Assembly (NCBI GenBank): GCA_963847665.1 | Contig: CAWKAO010000003.1 | Location: 85,453 to 149,452, forward strand | Origin: an uncultured Actinomycetes bacterium | Lineage (GTDB): Bacteria > Actinomycetota > Humimicrobiia > Humimicrobiales > Humimicrobiaceae | Direction: 5' to 3' | Length of the DNA stretch: 64,000 nucleotides | Part shown: positions 853 through 41,048 of the stretch, in pieces | How the letters are laid out: every line of letters begins with the position of its first letter | How positions within the stretch are numbered: position 1 is the first letter of the stretch | Notes under the pieces: generated by a model | What the model saw: the letters and a program-made list of their open reading frames with translations, nothing else | Databases searched by the model: none | What the model was told of the DNA's origin: nothing | Made by a program: the position numbers and the translations under genes

Positions 853-905
853 TCCCAAAACCTGAATATTTTTTTCTACTACAGTTTACTTTCAACTGCT
901 TTGAC

Positions 906-2222: not shown

Positions 2223-2280
2223 ATCAGAGTTTTTCTTTTTACCAGGATTACATTAGCTCCTTGCATGTATTTCTCTAAGT

Positions 2281-3075: not shown

Positions 3076-3224
3076 TTAAATCCTGTATATTATAGCATTA
3101 TTTTTTTTATTAATAATAACAAAAGCATTATTCACCAGTAAGCAATTCTTCCCAAATCTTGAATAATTCGAAAGTCAGGGTTGCAGTTTGAAGAGTAAGC
3201 CATACCAGTCTTATTAACAATTAT

Positions 3225-5516: not shown

Positions 5517-5537
5517 AGATCAGTATTAATGTGCACC

Positions 5538-8104: not shown

Positions 8105-8213
8105 TTTTTAAGAGAGAAATTCTTTCTTTTCCCTATTTTTAAGAACAACTCATATTAGTTTAAAAAATAGTTTAATCAATAATCAACTATTTTACTAATT
8201 ATAATTCTTCTAT

Positions 8214-9527: not shown

Positions 9528-9557
9528 AGCAAATAAATCAATATTATTATTTATAAA

Positions 9558-10436: not shown

Positions 10437-11625
10437 CTTTTACCCCTGCCAGGTCCTTATATAGGTCCTGCATATCTATAAGCTGATTCTTTAAGCTGAA
10501 CCTGTCTTTAAGTATGCTTATCGCATTTTCCCTGATATTTTTAAGATTATACCTGTTTTGATATACATCCAGGATCTTTTCAGCAAGTGCCTCCCTTTCT
10601 GTATCGACAAGAAACCCGTTTTTACCATCCTCTATTATCTCTGGTATGCCACCCACTTTTGTGGCTATTACAATATTTGCTGAAGCAAATCCTTCAAGGA
10701 TCACCCTTGGAAATGCATCATCTAATACAGGACAGTGGACAAGTACATCAGTAGATCTCAGTATCCCTTTTACATTTTTATTATAACCTATCATAAATAC
10801 TTTATCTTCAAGGCTGTTTTTCTTTATCATCTCTACAAGCCCTTCTTTATATGGCATGTCTTTTTCATTATAGATATCACCGACAAGTACGACTCTGATG
10901 TCTCTACCCTTCAGTTTATCGCTTGCCATGGAATCGACAAGCAAAGCCTGCCCTTTCAGCTCTGATATGTTTCCAATATTCACAATGATGAAGTCTCCGG
11001 TCTCCCTAGTAAAGAAAGCTCCAAGGTCTTCTTCCCTGACATTTTTTATATATTCATCATAATCAAGGCAATCATTGATGATTTTTAGCTTTTTCTTATT
11101 TACTTTCTGGCTGTTATAAGAACTAAAATCCAGAGCAGCTTTTTGTGACACAGCTACTACACTGTCTGCAAAAATCCCAGCAAATCTTGCCCTGATCTTT
11201 TTTTTCCACTTTTTATCAAGTATGTTCTTGAAGCTTATTATAAGCTTTTTCCCTGAAAGTTTTGCAGGAATAGCCACATAAAAGGCTTCCTGGATAGTGT
11301 GACATGAAATAATGTCTATCTTGTTTCTTATTATAAAAAAAAAGAAAATTATATTTATTATTTTTATGCTTATCAAAAACCATATAAGTAAAAATGGATT
11401 ATAATTGACATGCAAAAACGGCATCCTGATTATCCTGGTCTCTATATTGCTCTCAATCAGCCTGTAATACAGTGGACCCTTATCGTCAGGAAGGGCGACG
11501 ACCGGATGAAAACGTTCCTTGTCTATATTTTTTACAATATCCAGGAGAATACTTTCAGCACCTGTTATTTTTGATACCCTTGATATGTATAATATTTTTA
11601 TTTTTTTATCTTCCACATGCACCAT
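10429..11625 (-). CDS. Glycosyltransferase, GT4 family
   Basis: 'EGFASANIVIATKVGGIPEIIEDGKNGFLV' donor-binding motif of GT4 enzymes. Confidence 0.8.
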   Translation of the reverse strand: MVHVEDKKIKILYISRVSKITGAESILLDIVKNIDKERFHPVVALPDDKGPLYYRLIESNIETRIIRMPFLHVNYNPFLLIWFLISIKIINIIFFFFIIRNKIDIISCHTIQEAFYVAIPAKLSGKKLIISFKNILDKKWKKKIRARFAGIFADSVVAVSQKAALDFSSYNSQKVNKKKLKIINDCLDYDEYIKNVREEDLGAFFTRETGDFIIVNIGNISELKGQALLVDSMASDKLKGRDIRVVLVGDIYNEKDMPYKEGLVEMIKKNSLEDKVFMIGYNKNVKGILRSTDVLVHCPVLDDAFPRVILEGFASANIVIATKVGGIPEIIEDGKNGFLVDTEREALAEKILDVYQNRYNLKNIRENAISILKDRFSLKNQLIDMQDLYKDLAGVKDE

Positions 11626-15723: not shown

Positions 15724-16230
15724 TTATTTTACTGCTTTCAGGATAAACCCTGTTGTAAGGATGTCACTATTCACATTTAAAAGATTGTTTTCTTCAGCTT
15801 TTATTTCCTGTTTTACGAGATTTTTGAGATTATTACTTATGAATTTTATTTTTTCTTTAAAAAAAATATCTTTATCAATTTTTTTAAACCTCTCAAGATA
15901 TTTTTCCATATCGATTAAAAATTGGATACTACGGTAAGTACCCTGAAAATAAACGGATACTTCCCTGAAGCCAATCTCCCATAATTTTATGCTGAGCCAC
16001 TTGTATGAATAGACATTTAAATTATTTATGGGCTCAGTACCAAAAATAAACGGGCATGAAAATATTAGTTTTCCCCCATCATTTAGGTGATCATATATTT
16101 GTTTAAGGTCTTCCTCCGGATTTTCTAAATTATTATCCTTTATTATCGCGACATCATATTGTTTTTTGTTTAGATCACAATTGCCATAAAAGCAGATATC
16201 GCTGTCTTTCCTTAAATCCAGCGATCTCAT
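15724..16230 (-). CDS. Remnant of a class I SAM-dependent methyltransferase (C-terminal half only)
   Basis: 'YDVAIIKDNNLENPEEDLKQIYDHLNDGGKLIFS' matches motif II / post-II of the Methyltransf_11 family. A TAG lies 2 codons upstream of the Met and no GxGxG motif I is present in any frame upstream. Overlaps the 3' end of the next gene by 56 nt. Confidence 0.4.
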   Translation of the reverse strand: MRSLDLRKDSDICFYGNCDLNKKQYDVAIIKDNNLENPEEDLKQIYDHLNDGGKLIFSCPFIFGTEPINNLNVYSYKWLSIKLWEIGFREVSVYFQGTYRSIQFLIDMEKYLERFKKIDKDIFFKEKIKFISNNLKNLVKQEIKAEENNLLNVNSDILTTGFILKAVK

Positions 16231-17200
16231 TTTCTATAAAATGATCATTAAAAAAATCCCTGAGAGAAAAATCACCGGTCTCATTGACAACTGCTTTAGC
16301 AGCATCGATGCTTTGGAAGACTGCCTCCGAAAGCAGGCATCTGTTAATATAGTCTATCCACTGATCTGAAGTCGTTCTCTCTATATTCTTATACTTACCT
16401 TCAGTTTTTAATATTCCTCTGCCTAGATGCATATAAACCACATTATTATCATCATCAAATGCTCTTGTCGAATTAATATTATATATCTCCAGGGTCTCAG
16501 GTATAAGGTCCACTGATTCAGGTTCATCAAATGTATTTCTCGCAGCAAAGACCCCATAGTCATTTTTTAAAAACTCATGTATCAGCTTGTCGCCTATATC
16601 ATAAGCGGGCAGTTCAGGCATAAAACTTAAATTCAATTTTTTATAAAGTTGAAAATCGATAAGATATCCACAAACATGAAGGACGCCCTCTGGTACCCTT
16701 TCTTTTGTCAATCTAAAACCAGAAGCCCTGATCTTATTGTCTAGTTTTGAGAGCAGAAATTGCAACCATCCATATTTACAGACAACTGTATCTGAATGAA
16801 ACGTCACAACGTATTTTGCATTCTGATCTATTAGCCTTACCCCGACTTCCATTGCAATTCCATTAGAGTAAGAACCTCTTTCCTTTGGTTCGGTACGGAT
16901 GAACACCAGATTTACATCATTTAATTCATTCATCCATCCCAGGTTTTCAACAGGAGAATGGTCATCTATTACCCATAGCTCATAGGGAATATCTGTAAAT
17001 TTTTTAATACATTCTATACTTAGCCTCGTAAGAATCGATGCATCTTTATTAGGCTGGTAACTGACGATCAGTATTTTAGGAGCATCGGCAGGTCTTCTAT
17101 TATTTGCATTATATTTTATTTCATACTGTTTCCCATCAAATTCCAAGATTGTGTTTAGATATTTATTGCTTTCTAACCAGTTTTCCATCTTATTCCTCAT
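16175..17200 (-). CDS. Putative GT-A-fold glycosyltransferase
   Basis: 'KILIVSYQPNKDASILTRLSIECIKKFTDIPYELWVIDDHS' gives an N-terminal Rossmann-like pattern with a DxD-type motif. Weak family assignment. Confidence 0.45.
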   Translation of the reverse strand: MRNKMENWLESNKYLNTILEFDGKQYEIKYNANNRRPADAPKILIVSYQPNKDASILTRLSIECIKKFTDIPYELWVIDDHSPVENLGWMNELNDVNLVFIRTEPKERGSYSNGIAMEVGVRLIDQNAKYVVTFHSDTVVCKYGWLQFLLSKLDNKIRASGFRLTKERVPEGVLHVCGYLIDFQLYKKLNLSFMPELPAYDIGDKLIHEFLKNDYGVFAARNTFDEPESVDLIPETLEIYNINSTRAFDDDNNVVYMHLGRGILKTEGKYKNIERTTSDQWIDYINRCLLSEAVFQSIDAAKAVVNETGDFSLRDFFNDHFIENEIAGFKERQRYLLLWQL

Positions 17201-17247: not shown

Positions 17248-18240
17248 CTATTCAATGATAGACACTTCGTTGTTCCATTTGAGCTTCTTGAAGATCTCAA
17301 TATTTTTATATTTTTCCTGATTCAGATCTCCATAATAATCAAGATTGCTGTAGAGTTCTGAAATTATATCTGCTATATCAAATTGAGGTTGGAATCCAAG
17401 TTTGGTCTTGGCTCTTTCTATTTTTACTTTATAGTTTCTAAAATCCTGAATATTATTGATCTCCAATTTTATTTTTTCATTAGTCAATTTTTCAATCTCA
17501 CTTTTTACAAGATCTCCAACCTGGCCGACTGTATAATTACCGGATGCTACATTGAAGCACCCACTTATAGAATATACAGCTTGTATCGACCTGAGATAAG
17601 CTGAAACAGCATCCCGGATATCAAAAATTGGCCGCCATATTGATGGATTATTGATCGTAATCTTTCGCTCAGTAATAGCTGTTTTTAACATAGTGTTTAC
17701 TATCAGGTCAAATCTCATTCTCGGACTGTGTCCACATACTGTTCCCTGCCTTAAAGCAATAACTGAAAAGTCATCATCATGTAATTGAAATACTCCCCGC
17801 TCCCCCTGAAGTTTTGAAATACCATAAGGGTAAAAACAGGCCACAGGTGAATCTTCATCGTATAATTCATCAACAGTGTATCCATAGATCGAGCAAGAAG
17901 AAGCATATATAAATCTTCTTATTCCTGCCTGTTTACAAATAAAAGCCAGGTAAGCCGGGAGCGCAGCATTATAAATAAAATTCTTCGCGGGACTATATTC
18001 AGCCATCGGATCGTTGGAAAGACCAGCTAAAAAAATAAACTGGTCGAAACCGGTAAAGTCCTGTTTCTGGCAATTAAATAAATCCTTTTTTATAACAGTG
18101 ACATTTTCAGGCAGATGGTTACCAAACCAGCAAAGGTCGATCACCGTAATATCATAACCGTGCTCTATTAGTTCAGGTATCAATCTGGAGCCTATATAAC
18201 CTGCACCTCCACCAATAAGTAAGCGTATTTTTTTATCCAT
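17248..18240 (-). CDS. NAD-dependent nucleotide-sugar epimerase/dehydratase (extended SDR family)
   Basis: 'LLIGGGAGYIGSRLIPEL' glycine-rich NAD-binding motif and the 'YGISK' (YxxxK) catalytic motif. Confidence 0.8.
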   Translation of the reverse strand: MDKKIRLLIGGGAGYIGSRLIPELIEHGYDITVIDLCWFGNHLPENVTVIKKDLFNCQKQDFTGFDQFIFLAGLSNDPMAEYSPAKNFIYNAALPAYLAFICKQAGIRRFIYASSCSIYGYTVDELYDEDSPVACFYPYGISKLQGERGVFQLHDDDFSVIALRQGTVCGHSPRMRFDLIVNTMLKTAITERKITINNPSIWRPIFDIRDAVSAYLRSIQAVYSISGCFNVASGNYTVGQVGDLVKSEIEKLTNEKIKLEINNIQDFRNYKVKIERAKTKLGFQPQFDIADIISELYSNLDYYGDLNQEKYKNIEIFKKLKWNNEVSIIE

Positions 18241-18975
18241 TTAGTTCCTTTTTGACTTTAATAATTTATTATACCTGTCACAGATCAATGATGTATCCCT
18301 GGGGGCAATAAAAGAAACATCTTTAACTGAAATTGTCCCGATCTTTTTTCGTTCGTCCAGTCCACAGGCATATTCGTAAACTGTTTTCCTTTTTCCCCCA
18401 ATATGAATAATGCCAGTTATATTTTCTCCATTTTTAAGTATATCAATGATCTTTTTTGCAATTACACTTACATTTTCACGGCTGGTCCACTGATCAATAA
18501 AAGCTTTTTCATATGGGAATACATTTGGACCAAAACTTGTCCTGATTATCAAAGAATTATTGTAAAGATGTACGGCGCATTCTCCCCCCAGTTTGGACCA
18601 TGCATATTTATTCACCGGGAATACAGGATCGTATTCTTTATATTTCCCCTTGTCACCTTTGAAAACATAATCGGTTGAAATATAAATAAGCCATAAGTTA
18701 TATTTTAAACATAGCTTAACAATATTAGCCGTACCAATAATATTTATATCTATACCTTTTATAGGGTCTTCATTGACTTTTGGCGGAGAAGTAAATGCAG
18801 CAGCATGTATTACTAGCTTATATTTTTTACTCCTTTATAAAATTATCCATCTTTTTATGGTCAGTGATATCAAATTCTCCATGTGAGGGAAAATACGCTT
18901 CCGGGACAAGTTTTTTGAGTTCACTTCCCAGCATACCGCTCCCACCTGTAATAAGAACTTCTTCGGGATTAATCA
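18241..18975 (-). pseudogene. rmlD: dTDP-4-dehydrorhamnose reductase (RmlD) interrupted by a +1 frameshift in an A6 run
   Basis: The N-terminal 49 codons ('MINPEEVLITGGSGMLGSELKKL...DNFIKE') end at TAA (18827-18829, minus strand). The RmlD reading continues in the +1 frame ('KKYKLVIHAAAFTSPPKVNED...NKYAWSKLGGE...') down to 18241. The shift falls within the A6 run 'gagtaaaaaatat'. Confidence 0.7.
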
Positions 18976-19066
18976 TTTAGTATCCTATAAATTATTTGAA
19001 TAAATAAAATTATTAGAACGTTCGTCATTAAGCCAACCGTTTAGAGTAAGGCCAGTTTTGTCTTTT

Positions 19067-19627
19067 TCAGAAATGAAGTTCAGTAATATGGATTATGCTT
19101 TCGAATTTCTGTTTTAAATCCTTTTTACATAGCGACCAGTCAAAATCTTCTGCAAGCGGTGAGATACTTGCTTCGCATCCGGGACTGTATTCTCCTGTAC
19201 AGAAGTACTCTATCAAGCTGTTTTTTACCAGCAGTATTCCATGGGCAAACCCCGGCGGGACCCAGATCCATTCAGCTATATTACTCTCGGGATCATTTGG
19301 CATATCATAAGCAATAATATTTCCAAGAGTAGGTGAGTTCTTTCTTATATCAAGCGCAAAATCGACTAAATGCCCTGATAAGGGCCTGACTAATTTCCCC
19401 ATATATGGGTTCCATTGAAAGTGAAGACCCCTAAAAGCACCAGTGTAGGAAAAACTCTCATTTGCCTGTACAAAATTTTTACCTTTTAAAAAACCAATAT
19501 CATCGTTATTGAGAAGGTCACTTTTTCTATACTGCTCCGTAAAGTACCCCCGGTGATCACGGAAACGCTCAAAAACTACTACTTTAACTTCCGGTATGGC
19601 CAGTTCTCTGATTTCTTTGATCTTCAT
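19067..19627 (-). CDS. rmlC: dTDP-4-dehydrorhamnose 3,5-epimerase
   Basis: 186 aa. 'FERFRDHRGYFTEQY', 'GLHFQ' and the cupin core are typical of RmlC. Confidence 0.85.
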   Translation of the reverse strand: MKIKEIRELAIPEVKVVVFERFRDHRGYFTEQYRKSDLLNNDDIGFLKGKNFVQANESFSYTGAFRGLHFQWNPYMGKLVRPLSGHLVDFALDIRKNSPTLGNIIAYDMPNDPESNIAEWIWVPPGFAHGILLVKNSLIEYFCTGEYSPGCEASISPLAEDFDWSLCKKDLKQKFESIIHITELHF

Positions 19628-22562: not shown

Positions 22563-24722
22563 TTGGTATTGGGATTAATATTTCCACTCATAACTGCTTA
22601 TAATCTGACAGTATTTCTCAGCTATTCACTTGCAGGTATTTTTATGTACCTCTTTTTAAATGAATATAAATTGGAGAAAGCAGCTAGTTTTACAGCGGGT
22701 CTTATTTTTATGTTCAGCGGTTCACTGATCGCACATAAAAGCCACCTAGTGTTACTCAATACAGTAATCTGGTTACCACTAATTCTGCTTTTCCTGGAGA
22801 AATTTTTCAGATCAAAGAGATTTGAGTTTCTACTTTTAGCATCTATTGTTTACAGCATAGCTTTTTTTGGAGGGGCAATTCATACATTCCTTATCATTTC
22901 TTTGATTTTATTGATTTTTATTGTTTTTAAGGTATTTTTTTCGGACTACGGTAGCAATTATTATTTCCTTTATTCACTTATTATTTTCATAATAGGATTT
23001 TTAATAGTTCTTGCACAGGCACTACCGGCAATCGAGCTTGTATCACTAGCACGAAGTGAAAAACTTTCATATGAGGGATTCACGCTCAATTCATACAATC
23101 CTAAAATGGCTGTCACTTTATTCTTCCCTTATATTTTTGGTTTTAAGCATAATTTGACCAGTGCTTTTTATTATCCCCACTGGTTTGGTTATGATGAAGT
23201 TGGTGAAGTACTTCGTTACTTTGGTATTTTTACCATTCCAGTTTTTATATTTGGTTTCTTCAAAAAAGACAAAAATAAATATTTATGGTTCTTTTTATTG
23301 TTTATTTCGATATTCCTCTTAACCGGTAAATATAATCCACTTTATAAGATAGTATATTATATACCTGTTTTGAATCTATTCCATTTTCCTGCACGCGATT
23401 GGTTGGAATTTAGCTTCGCCTTTGCCATTATCTGTGGATTTGGTTTCAATGACCTGGTCAAAGCCGATAATAAAAAATTTAAAAACATTATATCAGGAAT
23501 TATAATATTCTTTACCTTTGTACTGGCATCATTTTCAGTATTCTATTTCCTGTTTAAATATAGTCTAAAAGATGAGATATCGGGTTTTTTCAGCAGTTTT
23601 TTAAAAAAGGAATTCTTAAGTGAAAGCATAGATATATCAAACTACGCAGTATATATGCCCCTTATTATAATTGGTACTCTAATAGTATTTTTGATCATTT
23701 TCCTATATAAAAGAAATAAAATAACATATGCCCTGCTTATAATATTTATTTTTTTGGACCTTTTATCAGTCGGCAGGGTATATGATGATAATACTAAAAA
23801 CATCATTTTAAATAAATCCGATTATGAAGATGGATTCATATATAAAGAAAACAAGGAAGAATCATTCAGAGTCTTTGTAATAGATGAGATACCCGAAAAG
23901 GATCTGTTTAAACCCAATATGAATGTACAATTTGGCCTGGAAAGTATTGACGGTTACGAGCCGTTATTTTTAAATGATTATTCTGATATGTTTATGAAAA
24001 AATTTATAAATTATGGCTTGATATGGAGTGAAGATTATAAAAAATACTTAATCAATAATAATCTGCTTTCAGTCTCAAACTGCAAATACATAGCTTTGAG
24101 TAAAGAGCACCTGAATGATTATATAAATCATATTAGGGAACAATCAGGTGGAAGTGATAGTGGATTAGAAGATTATGAGATTATTTACGAAGCAAATAGC
24201 AGTATAATACTGGAAAATAAGAAGTATCAGCCAAGGTTTTATTTTGCTGGAAAACTTATAAATGTCCAGAACATAGATGAGGCAAAAGATATAATCTGGG
24301 ATGATAAGGCTGGCGATGTAAAGTTCGATCCTTCATCAGATGTTATTGCCGAAAACATCAATTTTGAAAATACATCCTTTGAAGCACAGAACAACAGGCT
24401 GGAAATAATATCCAGCAAAAACAACAGTATTGAATTGGATATATCTGCACAGGAAAATTCATTTCTTGTATTTTCCGATACTTTTTACCCCGGGTGGAGA
24501 GCTTATGTGGATGGAAAAGAGACAGAGATCTACAGGACAAACGGTCTCTTTAAAGGAATATATATACCTGCAGGCAAACACATGATAGTTTTTAATTTTA
24601 TGCCCAGCCATTTCATTTTATACAGTACGATAAGTCTAATAAGTTTTTCAGGATGTATTTTAACGATAATAATATTAATTGCCAGAAGGAGGAGAAAAAG
24701 TATTTCTATTTCAGGACAATGA
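22563..24722 (+). CDS. YfhO-family GT-C glycosyltransferase (glycopolymer glycosylation type). The N-terminus is probably incomplete.
   Basis: Polytopic membrane protein with the YfhO C-terminal domain 'FYPGWRAYVDGKETEIYRTNGLFKGIYIPAGKHMIVFNF'. The same frame is open upstream from 22293 except for a single TGA at 22491-22493. Confidence 0.7.
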   Translation: MVLGLIFPLITAYNLTVFLSYSLAGIFMYLFLNEYKLEKAASFTAGLIFMFSGSLIAHKSHLVLLNTVIWLPLILLFLEKFFRSKRFEFLLLASIVYSIAFFGGAIHTFLIISLILLIFIVFKVFFSDYGSNYYFLYSLIIFIIGFLIVLAQALPAIELVSLARSEKLSYEGFTLNSYNPKMAVTLFFPYIFGFKHNLTSAFYYPHWFGYDEVGEVLRYFGIFTIPVFIFGFFKKDKNKYLWFFLLFISIFLLTGKYNPLYKIVYYIPVLNLFHFPARDWLEFSFAFAIICGFGFNDLVKADNKKFKNIISGIIIFFTFVLASFSVFYFLFKYSLKDEISGFFSSFLKKEFLSESIDISNYAVYMPLIIIGTLIVFLIIFLYKRNKITYALLIIFIFLDLLSVGRVYDDNTKNIILNKSDYEDGFIYKENKEESFRVFVIDEIPEKDLFKPNMNVQFGLESIDGYEPLFLNDYSDMFMKKFINYGLIWSEDYKKYLINNNLLSVSNCKYIALSKEHLNDYINHIREQSGGSDSGLEDYEIIYEANSSIILENKKYQPRFYFAGKLINVQNIDEAKDIIWDDKAGDVKFDPSSDVIAENINFENTSFEAQNNRLEIISSKNNSIELDISAQENSFLVFSDTFYPGWRAYVDGKETEIYRTNGLFKGIYIPAGKHMIVFNFMPSHFILYSTISLISFSGCILTIIILIARRRRKSISISGQ

Positions 24723-25694
24723 TATTTTCTTTCTTTTACCAGTGAAGATAAATGGCAAGCCTACGATACCGGTTATTACACTCACAGAAAAAATATATAG
24801 TGAAAGTGCTGTTGCTGATTCTGCAGATAGTCCATATTGACCTAGGATTGAAATATATGATATCTCCCTTAACCCTATACCTGAAATAGAGATCGGTATC
24901 ACGGTTATAAACCACACTATACAACTTGAAATGCTTATATCAAAAAAGGATAACCTGATACCAATAGAATAAGCAATGAGATAATTAATTGCAAAAAAAA
25001 TAGTATGTATAACAAAACTTAAAAAAAAGAGCATAAATAAAAATCCGGGGATTTTTTAAATAAAACTTTATGATCTCATCAATCAGAATAAAAGTCTCCT
25101 TTATTTTAATAATGATCTTTTTATCCGTCTTCCATTTTTTAAGAATCCTTTTAATATCGCCCCTTTTAACAAATAATATCAACAGGATCGACAATATACA
25201 GATGGATAGAAAAATACACCAGACTATTAGTTTTATTTTTAATTGAAAAAAGGGCTCAGTGAGAAAGCAGCAACCCCTAGAATAAATAATGAAAGAAAAC
25301 CTATCGTACGGTCAAAAAAAATCGATAAAATATTCCTTGTCTTGTTATAAGAAGTGTCGCTTCCCACCCAGACAGCTTTTACAATATCCCCTCCAAGAGC
25401 CCCTGGCATAACAAGGTTAAAGGTCGAGGACATCATCATGTACCTGAAATAATCCCAATTACTTAACTGCCTGAGGTCATCTGTATTTACGAGCTTCCAC
25501 CTTATACCATTCAGCCAGACTCTTAAGATTGACATTAAAACAGAGACGGCCAGAATCCAAAAGGAGATTTTTTTTAACGTATTGAAAAGTATTCCAAAAT
25601 CAACCTTATAAATAAGGAAAACAACAGAAGCAGCTAATACCAGTATTCTCAAAAATATGAAAATCAGCTTTTTTGTTTTGCCCTGCATAACCAT
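24711..25694 (-). pseudogene. Flippase-like (LPG-synthase TM-region / UPF0104 family) membrane protein, split across three frames
   Basis: The N-terminal fragment (25239-25694, 'ILRVWLNGIRWKLV...PGALGGD') and C-terminal fragment (24711-25034) are bridged by a third-frame ORF (24985-25194). Same architecture as the intact paralog at 60234-61274. Confidence 0.5.
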
Positions 25695-25717
25695 GAATGA
25701 AATCCGTTATGGTATTT

Positions 25718-26870
25718 TTATATTTCTTTTATATGGTAGCCCGTTTTTTCAAACCAACCATTGGAGTCTCTTACAATTTCACCGGGTTCGTAATAAAACT
25801 GGAATTCAAGGCATGATCCTTGATCGAAACCATCAGGAATATTGAACGCTTCACCTGGTCTCTGGTGAAAGAACTCGATCTGGTATCTTTTATCTATTTG
25901 CTCTGAAATGACTGGAATTTGCTTTTCTGAAGTGATTTTACCCAGCAATCTGTCGATATTCAAGCCCAGTAAATCGATCCCATACCTGTATTTTATGATC
26001 TTCCATATATGTCCACCATCAAACCTCGGGGCAGCCTCTATAAGATTAAATTCCCCATCGTTATATTTGCCCTGCATATATATGCAACCATTTTTAATTT
26101 TTGATATTATAATAAAATTTTTAACAAATTCCACGATCTTTTCTTGATCCTTCGGTGGTATTTCACTTGGAATGATATGATTTTTTAACAACTCCGACAG
26201 GCATATCAGGTCGTATTATCTCCGGTATACTTTCCTCTACAAGTATCCTGTCACTTATGAATGTAAAAAGTGCGATCCCCCGATAGACAAAAACAAGTAT
26301 ATTAAATTCACTGCCATTTAAAAATTCTTCGACTATCACTTTTTAAAACCTGGATTGTGCACTGCACCTTAAATAAATATTTTACAGTTCGCTGCTTGCC
26401 TGTGACTTTTCTTACTCCACGCTGTCCCTGGCTGTTAACAGGTTTTATTATTGCAGGAAATTTATCCCATTTTTCAAAATCCGCAGTTTAGAACCAGTCT
26501 TATATTTTACTGGTCTGAGATTATTGGCTATTCAAAAATCTTCGGAAATCTCCCTTATTTATAAACATTTGGACCTGATCTAATCAAAGTCAAATGGCAG
26601 ACCAAGCTTCCTCAGACACTTCTGCTATTGCCGGCATTGCAATATCAGAACCAGTGGAATAGACAAGATCAAAATTATTTTTTTTGTATAATCAAGAACT
26701 GATTTTATATCTGTAATATTTATCTGCTCAAAATGGTCAATAAACGGGAGTGCCATACCCTCTTTTTGCCAGCTTAAACCGTGGACTTTAAATCCCTGTT
26801 TTTTGAAATAAAGGATCGCATCGATCTGGGGATGTGTTATACCAAGTATCAAGACTTTTTTAGAATCCAT
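25718..26870 (-). pseudogene. Decayed paralog of the ATP-grasp ligase
   Basis: N-terminal fragment (26625-26870, 'KKVLILGITHPQIDAILYFKKQGFKV') and C-terminal fragment (25718-26191, ATP-grasp C-domain). The intervening 26192-26624 translates to 'IKPVNSQGQRGV...', matching 'IKPVDNQGSRGV' of the 21021 gene, but is riddled with stops and frame changes. Confidence 0.6.
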
Positions 26871-26891
26871 TTTTTACTTTTAGCTCTGCAC

Positions 26892-27648
26892 TCATATCTC
26901 CAGATTATTATAAAGCTTTTTCCAGAGTTTCATAAATTCCACTGTTTCTGGCATCCTTGGTATTTCCAATGAATTTTGCATAAATAGCCTGATTTTTGCG
27001 GGTATCTGTGAAAGAACCATTATTTTATTTCCAAGTATGATTGACTCCTGTATATTATGTGTAATAAAAACAATCGTTGTCTCAGTTTTCTGCCATATTT
27101 CGATCAGTTCATTTTGAAGGGTATTACGGGTCTGTGCATCTAGTGCCCCAAATGGTTCATCCATCAATAGGATTTTAGGTTTTATAGCAAATGCTCTTGC
27201 AATCGCCACTCTCTGACGCATTCCACCTGAAAGCTGGCGTGGATAAGCATTTTTAAATCCTGATAATTTTACCATCTCCAGAAAATGCAGGGCTATTTCC
27301 AATCTCTCTGCTTTTTTTAACTTCCTGAATTTAAGGTTTAGGGGATAAATTATATTCTCAAGAACTGTCTTCCAGTGAAAAAGTTGATCATAACCCTGGA
27401 AAACCATTATCCTGTCAGGTCCTGGTTTGTTTACAGGTATTGCCCTCGACTTTAATATTGCCTTCGTCTTTTTTTTCAAAGCAGCTTATACATCTTAGTA
27501 AAGTGGTCTTGCCACAACCTGATGGTCCCAGTACAGTCAGGAAGTCGCCATATTCAAGAGCAAGCGATACGCCATTTAGTACAACTAATGTCTTGTTGTT
27601 TATGGTGAACTTCTTTTTTAGATCTTCTATTTCAAGTACAAATCCCAT
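26892..27648 (-). pseudogene. ABC transporter ATP-binding protein (NitT/TauT family, SsuB/TauB-like) with a frameshift
   Basis: The Walker A fragment (27415-27648, 'GPSGCGKTT') and the Q-loop/signature/Walker B fragment (26892-27479, 'LSGGMRQRVAIARA', 'ILLMDEPFGALD') overlap in different frames. The junction is near 27440, where a 1-nt indel converts 'KVEG|IPVNKPGPDRIMVFQ'. Confidence 0.6.
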
Positions 27649-28437
27649 TCAATCAGAGATCCCCCATTTTATAATGGTCCTTTTTTCAACCTGTTTCATC
27701 AAAACTTCTTCGATCATTATTCCAATAATCACTATTACAAAAAGACCTGCAAATACGTCGGGTATTTCAAGGAAATACCTTTTCTGATATATATACCATC
27801 CCAGTCCACCTATCAGACCAGTAGCTCCAAATACCATTTCAGCCCCCACCAGTGCCCTCCAGCTCCTGGACCATGCTATTTTTAGACCTGAAAAAATATG
27901 AGGGAAAGCATTGGGTATCATCACTGAAAAAACAAGATGTAATTCTGACATGCCCAGACTCCTGCCCAATTCTATCTGCGTTTTAGGTACCGTGCGAAAT
28001 CCTGCAATTGAATTTACAATCACCGGCCAAATAACAGAATGGACGATGATTATTATTATTGCTTTTGCTCCCAACCCGACAATAAGCATTACTATCGGTA
28101 AAAGCGCAATACCGGGAAGTGGGTGCATTATGGATATTACCAGGTCAAGGATATGCGCAAAACTTTTATTGACCATATAAAATGCTGTCAGGATGAAAGC
28201 AGCGATCATACCGATCGCAATACCAGTAAATATTAGATACAAGGAATAGAGCGTATACTTTATGATCTCGCCTGAAATGATATTTTTCCACAATGCAACA
28301 AAAATAATAGATACGGGGGGTATAAGATTTGTTGAAGAAATAACAAACCTGGCCAGAAGTTCCCAAATTAAAAATACTGAAGCCAAAAATCCAAGCTTTA
28401 TAAATATTCCGGAGTATTTTTTCCTAAATGAAACCAT
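27649..28437 (-). CDS. ABC transporter permease (NitT/TauT family, SsuC/TauC-like)
   Basis: 262 aa, 6 TM segments, with the EAA-like loop 'ELGRSLGMSELHLVFSVMIPNAFPHI'. Confidence 0.8.
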   Translation of the reverse strand: MVSFRKKYSGIFIKLGFLASVFLIWELLARFVISSTNLIPPVSIIFVALWKNIISGEIIKYTLYSLYLIFTGIAIGMIAAFILTAFYMVNKSFAHILDLVISIMHPLPGIALLPIVMLIVGLGAKAIIIIIVHSVIWPVIVNSIAGFRTVPKTQIELGRSLGMSELHLVFSVMIPNAFPHIFSGLKIAWSRSWRALVGAEMVFGATGLIGGLGWYIYQKRYFLEIPDVFAGLFVIVIIGIMIEEVLMKQVEKRTIIKWGISD

Positions 28438-28485: not shown

Positions 28486-29463
28486 TCAATTTGCTTTCGA
28501 AGGATCAAGGTTATCCCAGATAAGTTCCGAGACATCTGTGGTTGTCTTCTGGACATAATCCGAGCTTTTCATAAAATCCAGAAACTTCAACATACCTTCT
28601 GGATTTTTAGAAAAAACCACTCCAGGCCATGTCAATTGCTTATATACTTCTTCACTTTCAAGGTCCATATCTTCTGCAAGCAATTTTGCTGCTTCTTCTG
28701 GATTTTCATTTATCCAATTTATTGAGTCATCAAGAGCTGAATCAATCGCTTTATAAAGGGAAGGGTTGCTGTTTTTAAATTTTTCAGTGCTGATGACAAC
28801 TAAAAAAGTAAATTGGGAGCCAAAGCAATCTTTTTCAGCATCAAGTACCTGATGTATGCTCTTATCTTCAAGCTCCATAAAAATATAGGGAGGTGATGTA
28901 AAATGAGCATCTATCTCTATCTTATTGATAAGAGCATTTGCTGCGTCTGGATGTGCCATCGCGACAATCTGATTATCAAGAGCTTTTGGGTCACCAAGCT
29001 GTTGTTTACATGCCATAGATAGGAGGATATGCTGGATACTTCCCGGCCCGGGTAGGGCTATCTTCATTTCTGGCTTTATATCATTGAGTGTCTTTATTTC
29101 TTCGTGATATGTCTGTAAACCAAGCGGCATCTTACATAGGGCTCCTAATACCTTAACGCCCAGATCTTTATTCCAGGATATTAAAAAAGGTGGAACACCC
29201 ATACTGCCGATATCGACTGCTCCGGATGCTATTGCTTCATTTATCGTCCCGCCCGATCCTAACTGGACCCATTCCACCTCAGCTCCCTCATAATATTTTT
29301 CAATAAGGTTTTTCTTTTGCATTATCATAAGAGGAGCATACCCCAGTCCGAATTGTTGAGCTATTACTACTTTTTGTGATTCCTGGGCAGCAGACTTGCA
29401 TCCCGGTAAAACAAAGATTAATATAAAAAAAATAACTAAAAAAATTATAGAATATTTCCTCAC
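28486..29463 (-). CDS. ABC transporter substrate-binding lipoprotein (NMT1/SsuA/TauA-like)
   Basis: Signal peptide with lipobox 'LPGC'. Periplasmic-binding-protein type II fold features. Confidence 0.7.
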   Translation of the reverse strand: MRKYSIIFLVIFFILIFVLPGCKSAAQESQKVVIAQQFGLGYAPLMIMQKKNLIEKYYEGAEVEWVQLGSGGTINEAIASGAVDIGSMGVPPFLISWNKDLGVKVLGALCKMPLGLQTYHEEIKTLNDIKPEMKIALPGPGSIQHILLSMACKQQLGDPKALDNQIVAMAHPDAANALINKIEIDAHFTSPPYIFMELEDKSIHQVLDAEKDCFGSQFTFLVVISTEKFKNSNPSLYKAIDSALDDSINWINENPEEAAKLLAEDMDLESEEVYKQLTWPGVVFSKNPEGMLKFLDFMKSSDYVQKTTTDVSELIWDNLDPSKAN

Positions 29464-33323: not shown

Positions 33324-34529
33324 TTAAATACTATTTTTGTCATCTTTAAAAAAACTTTTTATCACCTTTATTATCCTGTCCAGGTCTTCTTTATTTAAAT
33401 CATAAAAAAGCGGTAGTCTTAATATGCGATCCGATACATCTTCAGTTACAGGAAAGTCACCTGGTCTGTAACCCAACTTCGCTCCCATAGGGGATAAGTG
33501 AAGCGGCAAAAAATGGAATACAGCAATGATGTTGCTTCTTTTAAAATGATCCATCAGATCATTTCTTGTTTTTAGATCATTTAATAATATATAAAAAATA
33601 TGGCTGTTATGAGTGCAGTTATCGGGTATTACAGGTAGTCTTAAAAGTCCTTTTTTTTGAAATATTTCAAGATTTTCATAATAATGATTCCAGATATAAG
33701 ACCTTTTTTTATTTATATTATAAATTTTTTCAAATTGAGCATATAGAAAAGCAGAAAGCACCTCTGAGGGAAGGAATGATGAACCAATATCCACCCAGCT
33801 ATATTTATCGACTTCACCCCTGAAAAATTTGCTCCTGTTCGTACCCTTCTCTCTTATTATCTCTGCTCTCTCAAAAAAACTTTCATCATTTAACAAAAGT
33901 GCTCCACCCTCACCGCAAATTACATTTTTAGTCTCATGAAAGCTATAACAGCCTAGATTTCCAATACTGCCGAGATAACTATCCTTATATTTTGCTTCTA
34001 TGGCATGGGCAGCATCTTCAATAAGGATAAGGTTATAGTTTCTTGCAATTTGTACTATCTTATCCATTTCACAGGAGACACCTGCATAGTGGATCAGGAC
34101 AATAGCCCTGGTAAACGGGTTTATTGCTTCTTCAATTTTGTCTTCATCGATATTTAAAGTATCTTCCCTGATTTCTGCAAACCTTATGGTCGCATTTCTT
34201 ATGTAAAATGAGTTTGCAGCAGAAACAAAATTAAATGAAGGCATTATGACTTCATCTTCCTTTTTAATGCCAGCAAGTATTGCTGTCATATCCAGGGCAC
34301 TTGAGCATGACGTGGTCAGCAAGGCTTTTTTTACCCCATATCTTGCCTGGATAAAATCATGGCACTTTGTGGTGAAATCCCCGTCCCCGCTTATTTTTCC
34401 GCTTTCAACAGCCTGCTTTATATAGGAAAGCTCATTTCCGACTATTGAAGGTTTATTAAACGGGATCTTTGCGGTTTGCTTTTTTTCTGTTTCCTTCAAT
34501 ATATTTATTTTATTAATGTTCACTGTCAC
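33324..34529 (-). CDS. DegT/DnrJ/EryC1/StrS-family PLP-dependent sugar aminotransferase (ArnB/PglE-like)
   Basis: 'ALLTTSCSSALDMTAILAGIKKEDEVIMPSFNFVSAANSF' and 'YSFHETKNVICGEGGALL', which includes the PLP-lysine region. Confidence 0.85.
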   Translation of the reverse strand: MTVNINKINILKETEKKQTAKIPFNKPSIVGNELSYIKQAVESGKISGDGDFTTKCHDFIQARYGVKKALLTTSCSSALDMTAILAGIKKEDEVIMPSFNFVSAANSFYIRNATIRFAEIREDTLNIDEDKIEEAINPFTRAIVLIHYAGVSCEMDKIVQIARNYNLILIEDAAHAIEAKYKDSYLGSIGNLGCYSFHETKNVICGEGGALLLNDESFFERAEIIREKGTNRSKFFRGEVDKYSWVDIGSSFLPSEVLSAFLYAQFEKIYNINKKRSYIWNHYYENLEIFQKKGLLRLPVIPDNCTHNSHIFYILLNDLKTRNDLMDHFKRSNIIAVFHFLPLHLSPMGAKLGYRPGDFPVTEDVSDRILRLPLFYDLNKEDLDRIIKVIKSFFKDDKNSI

Positions 34530-35694: not shown

Positions 35695-37334
35695 TTGATA
35701 TTTAAAAGTATGTATTTTTTTAGTTCTATCAGAAGTTTTGCAGACAGTAAATATAAGTTGATCATAGTACTTTTTTTCATTATCTTCTTCATAATTGGTA
35801 TATTATCGGTAAGTGATTATGGGATTTCAACAGATGAAGGAGTCCAGCGTGATTTAGGCAATAATGCCTTAAATCTTGTTCTTAAAAATGATAAGGCCAT
35901 ATTTGAATATGAAAATAAGTACCATGGTACTGGTTTTACACTACCCCTAACCATCCTGGTGAAAAGCTTAAATATTAAGAATTTAAGGACTATTTTTTTA
36001 ATCAGGCATTATTTTACTTTTTTATTATTCTACATCTCAGTTATATTCTTCTACTTACTTTGCAGGAAATATTTTTAAGGACTGGAAACTTGGACTGCTT
36101 GGAGGCATTTTTTTAGTCCTTTCACCAAGAATATTTGCAGATTCATTTTACAACCCAAAAGACCTTCCTTTTTTATCAGCTTTTATTGTTTCTATTTTTA
36201 CTCTTAGCAGGTTTCTTGAGACTAAAAATATAAAATTTGCATTCTTACACGGTTTTGCTACAGGATTTGCTACAAGTATCAGGATAATAGGTATCATCAT
36301 TGTCTTTTTTACTTTTCTTTTTTTTATTTTTGATCTGATCCAGATAAAAAAACAGAAAAAAACCATAAATTCATCGCACATCTCCAATGTAATAATAAAT
36401 CTTTTAATATATCTATTTATTATGATAACTATTTTTCTTCTTTTTATGCCTGCACTGATTCCAAACACTATAAATAATTTTATTGGTGCCATAAAGCTTA
36501 TGTCAGACTATCCACACTCAAAAATAGGTCTTTACATGGGAAATATCATTTACGATACCAACCTTCCCTGGCATTATTTGCCTGTAAATATAGCAATAAT
36601 GACACCTATAATTTACACAGTATTATTTCTTTCAGGTTTAATATATTTTTTCAGCCGTTTCAGAAAAAATCTGGATACTTTTTATACCGAAAACAAATAT
36701 ATCATTATTGCTATTTTGTGGTTTTTTATTCCTGATGTTTTCCCAGATATTACTGAGCTCCAACCTGTATAACGGATGGAGGCAGATGTATTTTATCTAT
36801 CCAGCTTTATTGATCATCACACTGATCGGTATTAAATTTTTATTTGATTTCTTTAAAAAAAAGTTGAGTATCAAGAAATATAATGTAGTTGCTACAATTA
36901 TTACCTGTATATTAATCATTAATATAGCTTTTATTGCACAACTAATGATACGGCAGCATCCATACCAATATGTTTATTATAATATACTTGCAGGGAGAAA
37001 CCTGGAAGAGGTAAAGGAAAAGTATCCACTTGATTACTGGGGATTATCTTTCAAAGATGGGCTTGAATACATTCTAAGGACTGATAGCAGGGAAAAGATA
37101 ACTTATTATAACGGAGCCGGGCCAACAAGCTATTCTCAGCTTCTTCTGGATAAACAAGACAGTAAAAGATTAGTTTACGTCAATGATATCGATAAAGCCG
37201 ATTATTATTTAGATAATTATAAAAATATGGATTCTGAATATTACAAACCTTTTAACGGTTTTAGTCTCGAGAAAAAAGTCTTCAGTCTAATAGTAGATAG
37301 CGGAGAAATATTAACTGTTTATAAACTGAAATAG
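35695..37334 (+). pseudogene. Decayed paralog of the ~540-aa GT-C-fold membrane glycosyltransferase (GtrC-type)
   Basis: Three consecutive frames carry the colinear homologue of 43662-45311. A +1 shift sits at ~36072 in a T5 run ('CRKYF|KDWKLG' vs paralog 'CKKIFKDWKFG'). A second shift at ~36745 is a non-homopolymer 2-nt indel ('WFFIP|VFSQILLSSNLYNGW' is restored if 'at' is removed). Confidence 0.7.
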
Positions 37335-37422: not shown

Positions 37423-38487
37423 TTATAAATAACTTGTATAAATCTCCTTATAATATCTTCCAGCCAGTATTTTCCAGTCCAGCTCATCTACTTTTTGAAA
37501 ACCATTTTCTATTATCCTGACCCTCTGGTCACCATCATTTATAATCGATTTACAATTATCAGTAAGGTCCAAGATATCATCAACAGGACTTATCATGGCA
37601 TTCTGGCCGTTTATTGCTATATCATGCACCATGCCTACATCAGTGCTGACTACAGGTATGCACATAGCAAAAGATTCCATCAGAGCCTTTGGTCCCCCCT
37701 CAGTCCTTGAAGTGATAAGATACAGATCAAGGGCTCTATAATAATAAGGTATTTTTAATACATCCCTTGGGTAGAAATGTGCAAACGGGATACCTGCTTC
37801 TTTAAGTTTTTCTTTTACAAACCCTCTTGCAGGCCCGGTTAGCAGAACAAAAACAGGAAAGTCTTTTCTCAACCTTTTAACGACCTCGCAGAATATATCA
37901 GGGCCTTTTATAAGTTTGGGTTTTAAACCTTCGCCCCATCCGTCACCGTCTTTCTGGAAAGAGCCGATACATATAGAACCTTCGGGGATCATAAGCTTTC
38001 TTCTAATCTCTTCCCTGTCTTGTTTAAGGAAACTTTTAAAATATCCGACATCTATTCCTATAGGTATTATGATTATCTTTTCAGATGGAATCCCCCATTT
38101 TATAAGATTGTCCCTGCTCATGGTACATGAAGTAGTAACAACATCTATTTTTTTAGAGATTTCAGATAAATTATCTATATATTCCCTGTCCTTATCAGTA
38201 CCGTGATACCAGGTTAGAATAATATTATTAGTATTTGAGATATAATTATGTATGTCTGGCAAGTATGTGTTTCTTGACCCAAAATGTAATATCTGATTTT
38301 TTATGCCTGATAATCTCCTCTTAGAAGATTTAACAAGCTTTATATCAAGATCAAAAATCCTTTTTATATTTTGCGCTATGGATCGGCCTTCCCAGGCAAT
38401 GACCCATTCTATCCCTTCTATAACATAGTAGATATTTTTTTTATGGCTCAATCTCATCGTATCCTGATAAAATTTATCTCTATTCAA
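37423..38487 (-). CDS. Glycosyltransferase, GT4 family
   Basis: 'RTEGGPKALMESFAMCIPVVSTDVGMVHDI' GT-B donor-binding motif. Confidence 0.8.
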   Translation of the reverse strand: MNRDKFYQDTMRLSHKKNIYYVIEGIEWVIAWEGRSIAQNIKRIFDLDIKLVKSSKRRLSGIKNQILHFGSRNTYLPDIHNYISNTNNIILTWYHGTDKDREYIDNLSEISKKIDVVTTSCTMSRDNLIKWGIPSEKIIIIPIGIDVGYFKSFLKQDREEIRRKLMIPEGSICIGSFQKDGDGWGEGLKPKLIKGPDIFCEVVKRLRKDFPVFVLLTGPARGFVKEKLKEAGIPFAHFYPRDVLKIPYYYRALDLYLITSRTEGGPKALMESFAMCIPVVSTDVGMVHDIAINGQNAMISPVDDILDLTDNCKSIINDGDQRVRIIENGFQKVDELDWKILAGRYYKEIYTSYL

Positions 38488-38580
38488 AAAAAAATAAATT
38501 TAATAGAATTAATAAATAAAATATAATAAAATTTCAGAGCTAAATTATATTATAAAATCATCATTTATATAAATAGAAAA

Positions 38581-39901
38581 TGAATCCGGATTTGTTTTAC
38601 GACCAGCTTATAAAAAAAGAAACAAGATATAGCTGTAGTAGGGCTCGGCTATGTCGGTCTTCCATTGCTTATCGAACTTTCCAGATATTTTGATGTCATC
38701 GGCTTTGATTTAAACAGGCAACGAATATCGGAATTGAGGGAAAATCACGACAAGGACAGGAATGTAAGCATTGAAGAACTTACAGGTATTAAATGTAAAT
38801 ATACTGCCGACGTATAAGATCTTAATCTGGCTAACTTCTTTATAATCGCAGTACCTACTCCCATAGATACTGATAAAAACCCTGACATTACACTCTTAAG
38901 GGAGGCGACAATTACTGCTGGTGAGAATATGCCGTCTGGCTCTATCGTTGTCTATGAATCAACTGTATATCCTGGTGTCACTGAAGAAATCTGCATTCCT
39001 TTACTTGAGGAACATTCAAATCTAAAAAGTGGGCGGGACTTTTTTGTCGGTTACTCGCCCGAAAGGGTCAACCCTGGGGACAGGCAGCACACCCTTAAAA
39101 ATATACAGAAAGTCATATCTGCACAGGATGATGATTCTCTGGAAGTAATATCAAAAGTCTACAATAAAATTGTACCTGCTGGTGTTTTTAAGGCTTCAAG
39201 CATAAAAGTCGCAGAAGCCGCCAAAGTCATTGAAAACACCCAGAGAGATCTTAATATAGCTCTTATCAATGAACTTGCTATTATTTTTTCTAAAATGCGA
39301 TATCGATACAAGTGAGGTCCTTGAGGCAGCATCGACTAAATGGAACTTTATTAAATTTTATCCGGGCCTTGTCGGAGGGCATTGTATTGGAGTGGACCCA
39401 TACTACCTTACTTACAAAGCAAAAAAAATAGGATACCAGCCGGATGTGATACTTGCAGGCAGGAAAATAAATGATGGGATGGGATTATTTATTGGTCAGG
39501 AAATAATTAAAAACCTGGAAACAACCTACAAGGATATTAAAGGATCAAAAGCTATTATCTTCGGAATTACTTTTAAAGAGAACGTATCAGACATCAGAAA
39601 TTCCAGGGTGACTGATATTTATGATCACCTAAAGGTAAATGGTATAGATGCTCTTATATATGATCCTATTGCTAATAAAAATGATGTAAAAAAACATTAT
39701 GGAATAGATCTCATCGAGTTTGAAGAAATTAAAGGGGCAGATGCATTTATTTTTTGTGTATCACATAATGAGTTTAAAAATATTGATCTTAAAAGCTTAA
39801 AAGAAAAACAGAACAAAGAAAATCCTTTTATTTTTGATATAAAATGGATATTTAGAAAAGAAGATATAGAAAAGCTTGGTTACAGATACTGGAGAGTATA
39901 A
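38581..39901 (+). pseudogene. UDP-N-acetylhexosamine 6-dehydrogenase (TviB/WbpO/Cap5O-like), multiply disrupted
   Basis: (1) Frameshift in an A7 run at 38611-38617 between 'MNPDLFYDQLIKK' and 'DIAVVGLGYVGLPLLIEL'. (2) In-frame TAA at 38815-38817 ('[21 protein letters not shown]'). (3) Frameshift at ~39285-39300 between 'NELAIIF..' and '[16 protein letters not shown]...GGHCIGVDPYYL'. Confidence 0.75.
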
Positions 39902-40795
39902 ATGAGGCTTAATGAACTTAAGTTTAACAAGAAAATAAAAATACTTGTTACAGGCTGCGCAGGTTTTATCGGCAGCAATATAATGGAATTCCTACTCAGT
40001 AGGGATATGGCTGTTATCGGCCTAGATGATTTTTCTACAGGAACAAAAGATAATATGGATGAAGTTATCAATTCAATTTCTGAAGTCAATGAAAATCCGG
40101 ATTTCAAGTTTATCCAGGGAGATATAAGAGATTATAATTCATGTATTGCGGCGACAAAAAGTACAGACATTGTACTTCACCATGCTGCACTTGGTTCAGT
40201 TCAACGCTCAATTGAAAATCCCGCTGATTCAAGTTCTGTAAATATCGAAGGCACCCTTAATTTGTTAAGAGCTTCAACAGAAAACAAAGTCAAAAAATTT
40301 ATATATGCATCTTCATCATCTGTTTATGGTGATACAGCAATACTGCCAAAAGTCGAAGACATGCCTCCCAATCCAAAATCCATTTATGCAGTGACTAAAC
40401 TAACAGCAGAGTATTATTGCCGCCTGTATTTTGAAATGTTTGGTTTAATGACAATATCATTGAGATATTTTAATGTATTTGGAAGACGTCAAAACCCTGG
40501 TTCCATTTATTCAGCGGTCATACCAAAATTTTTAAAGAAGATTTCAGAGAACCAGCAACCTGAGGTATATGGAGATGGAAATCAGAGCAGGGATTTTACA
40601 TATATTGATAATGTAATATTTGCCAATTATCTTGCTATGACTTCGGAGAATGACAGATTGTATGGCAATTTTTACAATATCGCATGCGCAAAGAGGATCA
40701 GCCTCAATGAAATCATAGGTTTTATTTCAAAGACAAAGGGCATCCAATGTTACACCGGTCTATCTTCCAGAAAGAAAAGGAGATGTAAGGCATAG
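39902..40795 (+). CDS. UDP-sugar 4-epimerase of the WbpP/TviC type (extended SDR), with two frameshifts in the last ~50 codons
   Basis: 'KILVTGCAGFIGSNIMEFLL' NAD motif. The true C-terminus ('PVYLPERKGDVRHSLAGIEKAKK' then 'ILGYYPLVCFDEGFKRTCGSILNK*') is reached only after frame changes at ~40740 and in an A6 run at ~40825. The stop is at 40897-40899. Confidence 0.7.
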   Translation: MRLNELKFNKKIKILVTGCAGFIGSNIMEFLLSRDMAVIGLDDFSTGTKDNMDEVINSISEVNENPDFKFIQGDIRDYNSCIAATKSTDIVLHHAALGSVQRSIENPADSSSVNIEGTLNLLRASTENKVKKFIYASSSSVYGDTAILPKVEDMPPNPKSIYAVTKLTAEYYCRLYFEMFGLMTISLRYFNVFGRRQNPGSIYSAVIPKFLKKISENQQPEVYGDGNQSRDFTYIDNVIFANYLAMTSENDRLYGNFYNIACAKRISLNEIIGFISKTKGIQCYTGLSSRKKRRCKA

Positions 40796-41048
40796 CCTTG
40801 CAGGAATAGAAAAAGCAAAAAAGGATCCTGGGTTATTATCCGCTTGTATGTTTTGATGAAGGCTTCAAACGGACCTGTGGATCTATTTTAAATAAATAAT
40901 AGGTTTTACACCCTTCGACCTCATATCTATATTCATGCATAGATGATTCATATATCCCTCATAATCGACTATAGCAATTTGACATATTAAAAAAAATAAT
41001 AGTAATAATATTCTTATAAATGTATAATGATTTTTTTAAAAAAATTAA

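Follow-up and report, generated by a model that had tools for sequence, protein, structure and literature searches.

Contig CAWKAO010000003.1, from an uncultured low-GC (guanine-plus-cytosine) bacterium, carries two adjacent genes that resemble the dehydrogenase and epimerase of acidic-sugar synthesis, and in the sequence on record both are interrupted. The question raised by this locus is whether the pair has been inactivated in the strain, as a reading of the sequence alone (hereafter the sequence-only reading) had suggested, or whether the interruptions belong to the assembled consensus. The pair was analyzed within a stretch of 64,000 nucleotides (nt), termed the window, to which all positions refer; the whole source contig is 707,984 bp long. 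Genuine inactivation of the acidic-sugar branch is not established and is probably wrong, since an intact pair occurs elsewhere, the damage extends across seven unrelated genes, and a sibling assembly contains a lesion cluster as well. We lean towards the view that the lesions of the pair are a consensus artefact in strain-variable tracts, and the genes, judged by their sequence, probably form an ordinary and functional operon pair.

The reading frames of both genes were determined by three-frame translation of 38560-40920, and the shift sites were placed with a frameshift-aware alignment. The products called repaired below were obtained by deleting the extra bases, reading through the TAA codon, and translating the result. 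The first gene (38580-39901, plus strand) encodes a TviB/WbpO-like uridine diphosphate (UDP)-N-acetylhexosamine 6-dehydrogenase, which has 439 amino acids (aa) after removal of two extra bases and read-through of one stop. As written, it cannot be read in a single frame because of two +1 shifts and a TAA codon. Frame 0 begins with the ATG at 38580, and the conserved motif 'IAVVGLGYVGLP' sits in frame +1 without a start codon of its own, so that the frame must be corrected by +1 within the A7 run (38612-38618). This run forms codons 11-13 and has one A too many with respect to the reading frame; the sequence-only reading had recognized the same shift one base off, at 38611-38617. With six A residues instead of seven, the N-terminus becomes MNPDLFYDQLIKKKQDIAVVGLGYVG, which is colinear with that of P0001 (MNPGLFYKQLIDKKKKIAVIGLGYVG), the best orthologue among ten 439-aa metagenome dehydrogenases (P0001-P0010).

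The in-frame TAA occupies codon 79 at 38815-38817, exactly where it had been reported, and a GATC follows directly at 38818-38821. Codon 79 is variable among the orthologues, which have I, S, N or A in this place. The residues on both flanks of the TAA align with the orthologues, which makes it the substitution of a single codon rather than two indels; the earlier argument that it is no homopolymer error holds. The second frameshift of the dehydrogenase had been estimated at about 39290. P0001 reads 'IIFSKMDIDTSEV' in this region, which places a single extra base at 39298, in the context ATG[C]GAT and outside any homopolymer. The same alignment rules out the T6 run at 39284-39289 as the site.

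The second gene (39902-40899, plus strand) abuts the first on the same strand (39901/39902) and encodes a WbpP/TviC-like UDP-N-acetylhexosamine (or uronate) C4-epimerase of 331 aa after two extra bases are removed. One extra base lies within 40733-40748, and the other lies within 40817-40827, in or beside the A6 run at 40817-40822 that abuts GGATCC. Both +1 corrections fall inside the last 50 of the 331 codons, in agreement with the two frame changes that had been noticed there. A third frameshift was considered, in which the gene would end in frame 0 with TDLWIYFK and a stop at 40868-40899, where the W is conserved in distant homologues. It was rejected because the closest orthologue lacks that W, and because the 331-aa length and the 161-nt spacer found in another sequencing run fit the frame-1 ending, CGSILNK and a stop.

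Comparison with orthologues was one of the checks proposed with the claim of inactivation, and it showed that the orthologous copies are uninterrupted single open reading frames (ORFs) with lengths matching the repaired dehydrogenase (439 aa). The same locus was also followed in Logan contigs of three other public runs (ERR12037370, ERR12037369, and ERR15459714), where the comparison was made on gene tables, that is, on gene lengths, spacers, and products; a literature search for the accessions of runs and analyses gave no results. A 14,241-bp contig of ERR12037370 (Oz6nqsu9) has an intact dehydrogenase (1320 nt, 439 aa), an intact epimerase (996 nt, 331 aa), and an intact PMT_2-like gene (1623 nt, 540 aa), and its spacers of 123, 0, 161, 89, and 124 nt are the same as those of the window. 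The window versions of these three genes are each exactly 2 nt longer than their counterparts; therefore, all window shifts in the three genes are one-base insertions. On a contig of ERR15459714, dehydrogenase codons 1-128 are open, which spans both the A-run and the TAA site.

The genes around the pair are almost unchanged between these runs. The products of an aminotransferase gene (33324-34529) and of a GT4-type glycosyltransferase (GT) gene (37423-38457, minus strand) are 100% identical on Logan contigs of other runs, and the intact GT4 gene, which stands between broken genes, is identical in two of them. An ATP-binding cassette (ABC) permease is also identical in another run, where the neighboring binding-protein gene has equal length. 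Intact neighbors are identical across runs over 1007 aa in three proteins, so that the backbone is almost clonal between runs.

A sibling ENA assembly, ERZ25039603, behaves alike. Shorter proteins from its contig_63680, a Flye-style name, are the cluster representatives of two window proteins; they are identical to these over a first part and then run out of frame. This contig aligns to window positions 1-10741 with zero differences over 6061-10741. Over 3407-6060, it differs by 59 single-nucleotide polymorphisms (SNPs); 37 of them fall on codon position 3, and 35 are synonymous. The same tract contains 15 single-base indel positions, mostly insertions and mostly outside homopolymers, which interrupt two genes whose window copies are intact, a ligase-like gene and a priming transferase. 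The third-position and synonymous pattern of the SNPs marks a functional diverged allele, and a functional allele cannot also contain 15 frameshifts. We estimate, from what is generally known of mutation spectra, that a ratio of about one indel to each neutral-looking SNP exceeds that of natural decay 5- to 20-fold. The simplest reading of this cluster is a consensus error from collapsed strains. As a separate observation, the synteny between the two assemblies stops abruptly at 10741, inside a GT4 gene (10429-11625); either the island is strain-variable past this point, or one of the two assemblies is chimeric.

The repaired products belong to well-described families. The repaired dehydrogenase matches the nucleotide-sugar dehydrogenase subfamily TIGR03026 over residues 16-419 with 363.5 bits, above the cut-off of 189.8 bits, and each of its close homologues has the N, central, and C UDPG_MGDP_dh domains of Pfam. 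Its best NCBIfam match is TviB with 440.4 bits, where 592 bits are required of an equivalog (NF011729), and the best match of the repaired epimerase is TviC with 283.6 bits, where 760 bits are required (NF011728). The TviB/TviC-like identities assigned to the pair from its sequence are thus correct at the family level, and the equivalog level is not reached. The GLGYVG (Rossmann GxGxxG) and GGHCIGVDP motifs of the dehydrogenase are intact, and GLGYVG and the catalytic-cysteine motif GLVGGHCIGVDPYY are both present as in the orthologues. The catalytic role of the GxGxxG and cysteine motifs is established for the nucleotide-sugar dehydrogenase family. The closest solved structures to the repaired epimerase are WbpP (1sb8; 286 bits, E 3e-84, residues 10-315) and WbgU (3ru7; 273 bits), with which its TGCAGFIGS (GxxGxxG), SSSSVYG, and YAVTK motifs align; GxxGxxG and YAVTK are intact.

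The TviB/WbpO plus TviC/WbpP pairing makes UDP-N-acetylgalactosaminuronic acid (UDP-GalNAcA) for acidic surface polysaccharides. The window pair is a relative of both TviB/TviC and WbpO/WbpP and an equivalog of neither. WbpO/WbpP, which synthesizes UDP-GalNAcA in Pseudomonas aeruginosa serotype O6, shows the same pairing of a 6-dehydrogenase with an extended short-chain dehydrogenase/reductase (SDR) C4-epimerase, and WbpP shares the GxxGxxG, YxxxK, FGRRQ, and GDVRHSLA motifs with the repaired window epimerase. The identity is only moderate, however, and the reaction order and substrate of the window pair are putative. The window genes also stand in a very different island, rich in GT-C membrane glycosyltransferases, and both are interrupted here. 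In the Vi capsule locus of Salmonella Typhi, the genes are likewise adjacent and co-oriented, and the profiles align nearly end to end (TviB 8-419 of 425, TviC 17-334 of 348), whereas the scores stay far under the equivalog cut-offs and, of the remaining Vi genes (tviD, tviE, vex), none was seen.

The closest likeness is found among metagenome sequences. In the locus of a metagenome-assembled genome (MAG), GCA_014894525.1, and in P0001-P0010, the dehydrogenases are 63-67% identical to the repaired product, and P0001, with 439 aa, is at 67%. The MAG epimerase (327 aa, 63.8% identical to the repaired window epimerase) follows the orthologous dehydrogenase (439 aa, 63%) after 2 nt; in locus L024, the two genes are 2 nt apart as well. 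The MAG epimerase and the window epimerase share the lineage-specific residues TGCAGFIGS, GSVQRSIE, and NPKSIYAVTKLTAEYYCRL, and the neighbors at loci of this type are also GT4, GT2, LPG_synthase_TM, and hexapeptide-transferase genes. These copies differ from the window pair in being uninterrupted; their loci have no called ATP-grasp or DegT gene and include an asparagine-synthase-like amidotransferase. Hundreds of metagenome proteins are exactly 439 aa long and 60-67% identical to the repaired dehydrogenase; JGI labels several of these homologues UDP-GlcNAc/UDP-GalNAc dehydrogenase (GlcNAc, N-acetylglucosamine; GalNAc, N-acetylgalactosamine), an annotation that is the only evidence on substrate. 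Protein searches with the dehydrogenase found no full-length relative above 67%, and 73% at most over a 279-aa internal query. In a scan of GTDB representatives, which do not include the source genome, dehydrogenase relatives reached 52% identity at most and few had an adjacent epimerase; only 2 of the 21 distant reference loci have an epimerase (43-47% identity) some 2 kb downstream of the dehydrogenase. Nothing in the pair is outside known kinds. By family, its chemistry would most likely be the supply of UDP-GalNAcA for a surface glycan.

The sequence-only reading had further proposed the nearby ATP-grasp ligase and aminotransferase as users of uronic acids whose linkage to the pair might be conserved, which the comparison did not bear out. 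No ATP-grasp relative was found near the dehydrogenase in the 21 reference loci, and none was called in the orthologous locus. The only aminotransferases are generic DegT-type proteins of 24-28% identity, in 9 of the 21 loci.

The damage in the window is much wider than the pair. Altogether, 17 single-base frameshifts (13 of insertion type and 4 of deletion type) and two stops are spread over seven unrelated genes from 18.2 to 40.9 kb, where broken and perfect genes are interleaved. The broken genes encode an RmlD-like reductase, an LPG_synthase_TM protein, an ATP-grasp protein, an ABC ATPase, a PMT_2-like protein, the dehydrogenase, and the epimerase. In the 41 kb formed by 1-18 kb and 41-64 kb, no frameshift or stop lesions were found, apart from an ORF overlap at 16175-16230. 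Seven lesions fall within the three adjacent genes for the PMT_2-like protein, the dehydrogenase, and the epimerase, that is, within 3.9 of the 64 kb, and each frameshift there is one extra base, two per gene. This clustering is not due to chance. Only 23 of the 368 runs of at least six bases in the window are inside these three genes, so the process that caused the damage was local, and a generic homopolymer error is rejected on the same census. A methylation-motif basecalling error was also considered and set aside; two of the seven lesions, the TAA and the epimerase A6 site, lie within 4 nt of a GATC, which is marginal at 4 GATC per kb.

The PMT_2-like gene (35710-37334, plus strand) encodes a GT-C membrane glycosyltransferase of 540 aa when repaired, with one inserted base near 36061 and another in the T6 run (36722-36727). 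A second lesion cluster involves three genes on the minus strand at 24714-27648: the LPG_synthase_TM gene (24714-25694) with two frameshifts (25026 and 25241), the ATP-grasp gene (about 25721-26870) with seven frameshifts and one stop, and the ABC ATPase gene (26895-27648) with a single frameshift (27426). In the window, the same ABC transporter has an intact permease gene (27649-28437) and an intact binding-protein gene (28486-29463). The RmlD-like reductase gene (18244-18976, minus strand) has one single-base insertion at about 18829; its neighbors, a dTDP (deoxythymidine diphosphate)-sugar 3,5-epimerase gene (19067-19627) and an SDR epimerase gene (17248-18240), are intact.

The stitched RmlD-like, LPG_synthase_TM, ABC ATPase, and PMT_2-like translations match Pfam families across the lesion points, those of LPG_synthase_TM and the ABC ATPase over the full length of the profile. 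For ATP-grasp, the stitched translation can be aligned to a 382-aa homologue (P0220) from one end to the other, every piece included, despite seven frameshifts in 1.15 kb, most of them outside runs. The window also has intact paralogues of ATP-grasp and LPG_synthase, which proved too distant to guide repair of the broken copies. Identity to the orthologues is equal before and after each lesion, at 52-76% per segment, and the conserved motifs are untouched.

The explanation that we favor begins with a long-read metagenome assembly, which the source contig would be. Co-occurring strains with diverged alleles of a variable glycan island would have been collapsed into one consensus, and in such tracts the polisher would leave single-base indels, mostly insertions, and chimeric codons, while monomorphic tracts would be perfect. 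Flye merges strains of ~98.65% identity into one consensus (PMC8302730), and indels are a primary cause of frameshifted ORFs in Nanopore-based assemblies (PMC9262707). The window resembles collapsed-strain Nanopore/Flye assemblies in its single-base indels that truncate conserved genes, in the local excess of these indels at strain-variable alleles, and in the intact versions found elsewhere. An artefact is favored because intact alleles exist elsewhere, the indels are single bases with an insertion bias, and the motifs and flanking conservation are untouched. It is also favored because the broken genes form no functional set (the ABC ATPase is broken and its permease is not), because the sibling assembly behaves alike, and because 17 neutral indels would have needed more time than a near-clonal backbone allows. 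Truncated fragments of 297, 210, 128, 151, and 116 aa were looked up as exact products without a match, and the shortened products of the pair are absent from every assembly on record; these negatives have little weight, as the 128- and 297-aa fragments are already in the protein collection of the source contig.

Several observations weigh against an artefact. The sequencing technology of the source contig is inferred, in which the case differs from the known Nanopore/Flye cases. It also differs in that one neighboring lesion recurs in another run. A Logan contig of ERR12037369 has the identical 122-aa N-terminal PMT_2 fragment, and thus shares the first frameshift of that gene, and it is open across the second site. 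This first frameshift is probably a real segregating allele, unless ERR12037369 is the read set behind the source contig. The TAA is a clean single-codon substitution, and relaxed selection would also fit the distribution of the lesions, which affect entire genes and leave the intervening 1-kb GT4 gene untouched. In addition, after the NMT1-like binding-protein gene of Oz6nqsu9, no 262-aa permease is called in the equivalent of window ~27.6-28.5 kb, and a 67-aa opposite-strand ORF and a 58-aa in-frame remnant are found. This missing call hints at real disruptions or rearrangements in the population, or at a different junction.

The main alternative is a genuine, recent, and strain-specific decay, in which the UDP-GalNAcA pair, the PMT_2-like gene, and other island genes would have been inactivated while sister strains stayed intact, for example through phage- or grazing-driven loss or remodeling of the glycan. 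This is possible and clearly the less likely explanation. The lesions stand in the record and are clustered by whole gene, the sharing of the first and not the second PMT_2 shift with ERR12037369 gives a nested, stepwise pattern, and one lesion is a base substitution. Contigs of ERR15459714 end inside the PMT_2-like, dehydrogenase, and ABC ATPase genes, and these three genes are therefore polymorphic in nature. Against decay, 17 indels need about 1-2% neutral divergence, yet the backbone is near-clonal over the 1007 identical aa. All indels are single bases with an insertion bias of 13:4, and no conserved residue is degraded, whereas relaxed constraint would be expected to bring lost conserved residues, indels of mixed size, and far more substitutions than indels. 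The broken genes make up no functional set, as the ABC ATPase without its permease illustrates, and the sibling assembly has its indel excess in an allele whose SNPs show purifying selection. A related possibility, which we regard as doubtful, is that the lesions are real and form a mosaic of strain-specific loss-of-function alleles on a near-clonal backbone, confined to one glycan island and produced by an unusually insertion-biased single-base indel process; the genes hit would differ from strain to strain, with the dehydrogenase, epimerase, and PMT_2-like genes in this one and the ligase-like and priming-transferase genes in the sibling.

Two further explanations would keep the genes in use. 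Phase variation, with the A7, A6, and T6 tracts as slipped-strand switches and the window caught in the OFF state, would account for the A7 tract at dehydrogenase codons 11-13, the tract-linked shifts (A6 in the epimerase, T6 in the PMT_2-like gene), and the coexistence of intact and shifted alleles in related samples. It is very unlikely, since the tracts are short (6-7 bases), the window has 368 runs of six or more bases without effect, and a single slip could not restore function to genes with lesions outside tracts (39298, the TAA at 38815, and ~40740); the ATP-grasp frameshifts are also mostly outside runs. Recoding by programmed +1 frameshifting and stop read-through, which would yield full-length enzymes from the sequence as written, is supported only by the common direction of the six shifts in the dehydrogenase, epimerase, and PMT_2-like genes. 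The shift sites have no common motif and are heterogeneous (homopolymer, ATG[C]GAT, and others), and an Rfam scan of the window found no RNA element. Near-identical strains use one frame in genes exactly 2 nt shorter, and the orthologues are single ORFs. The uninterrupted alleles in other runs effectively refute recoding, and practically no probability remains for it.

The window as a whole is one large glycan island. It includes a priming phosphotransferase, Wzy/ligase-like genes, numerous GT2 and GT4 genes, five or more PMT_2-type GT-C genes, a YfhO gene, and a Wzx-like gene. GT-C membrane glycosyltransferases are unusually dense at 41-64 kb and 22563-24722, with PMT_2/PMT genes at 43662, 47381, 53719, and 55365 and the YfhO gene at 22563. 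In these regions, several ORFs of 530-700 aa have no family match, and the GT-C genes alternate with GT2 genes and genes for PD40 beta-propeller proteins. At 15724-17200, two minus-strand ORFs (341 and 168 aa) share 56 nt (16175-16230) and may together be another frameshifted gene, with only a weak match to DUF2194.

If the lesions are an artefact of the consensus, the contig, and probably sibling assemblies as well, would contain single-base consensus errors that cluster locally in glycan loci varying between strains, and pseudogene and pathway-loss calls from this contig would be untrustworthy without the reads. If the lesions are real, they would represent a very recent, strain-level shut-off of surface-glycan genes, which would be of moderate interest for population genomics and no new kind of system. 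Should the mosaic of loss-of-function alleles prove true, it would point to a rapid, perhaps phage-driven, inactivation of the glycan in this bacterium or to a local hypermutation mechanism.

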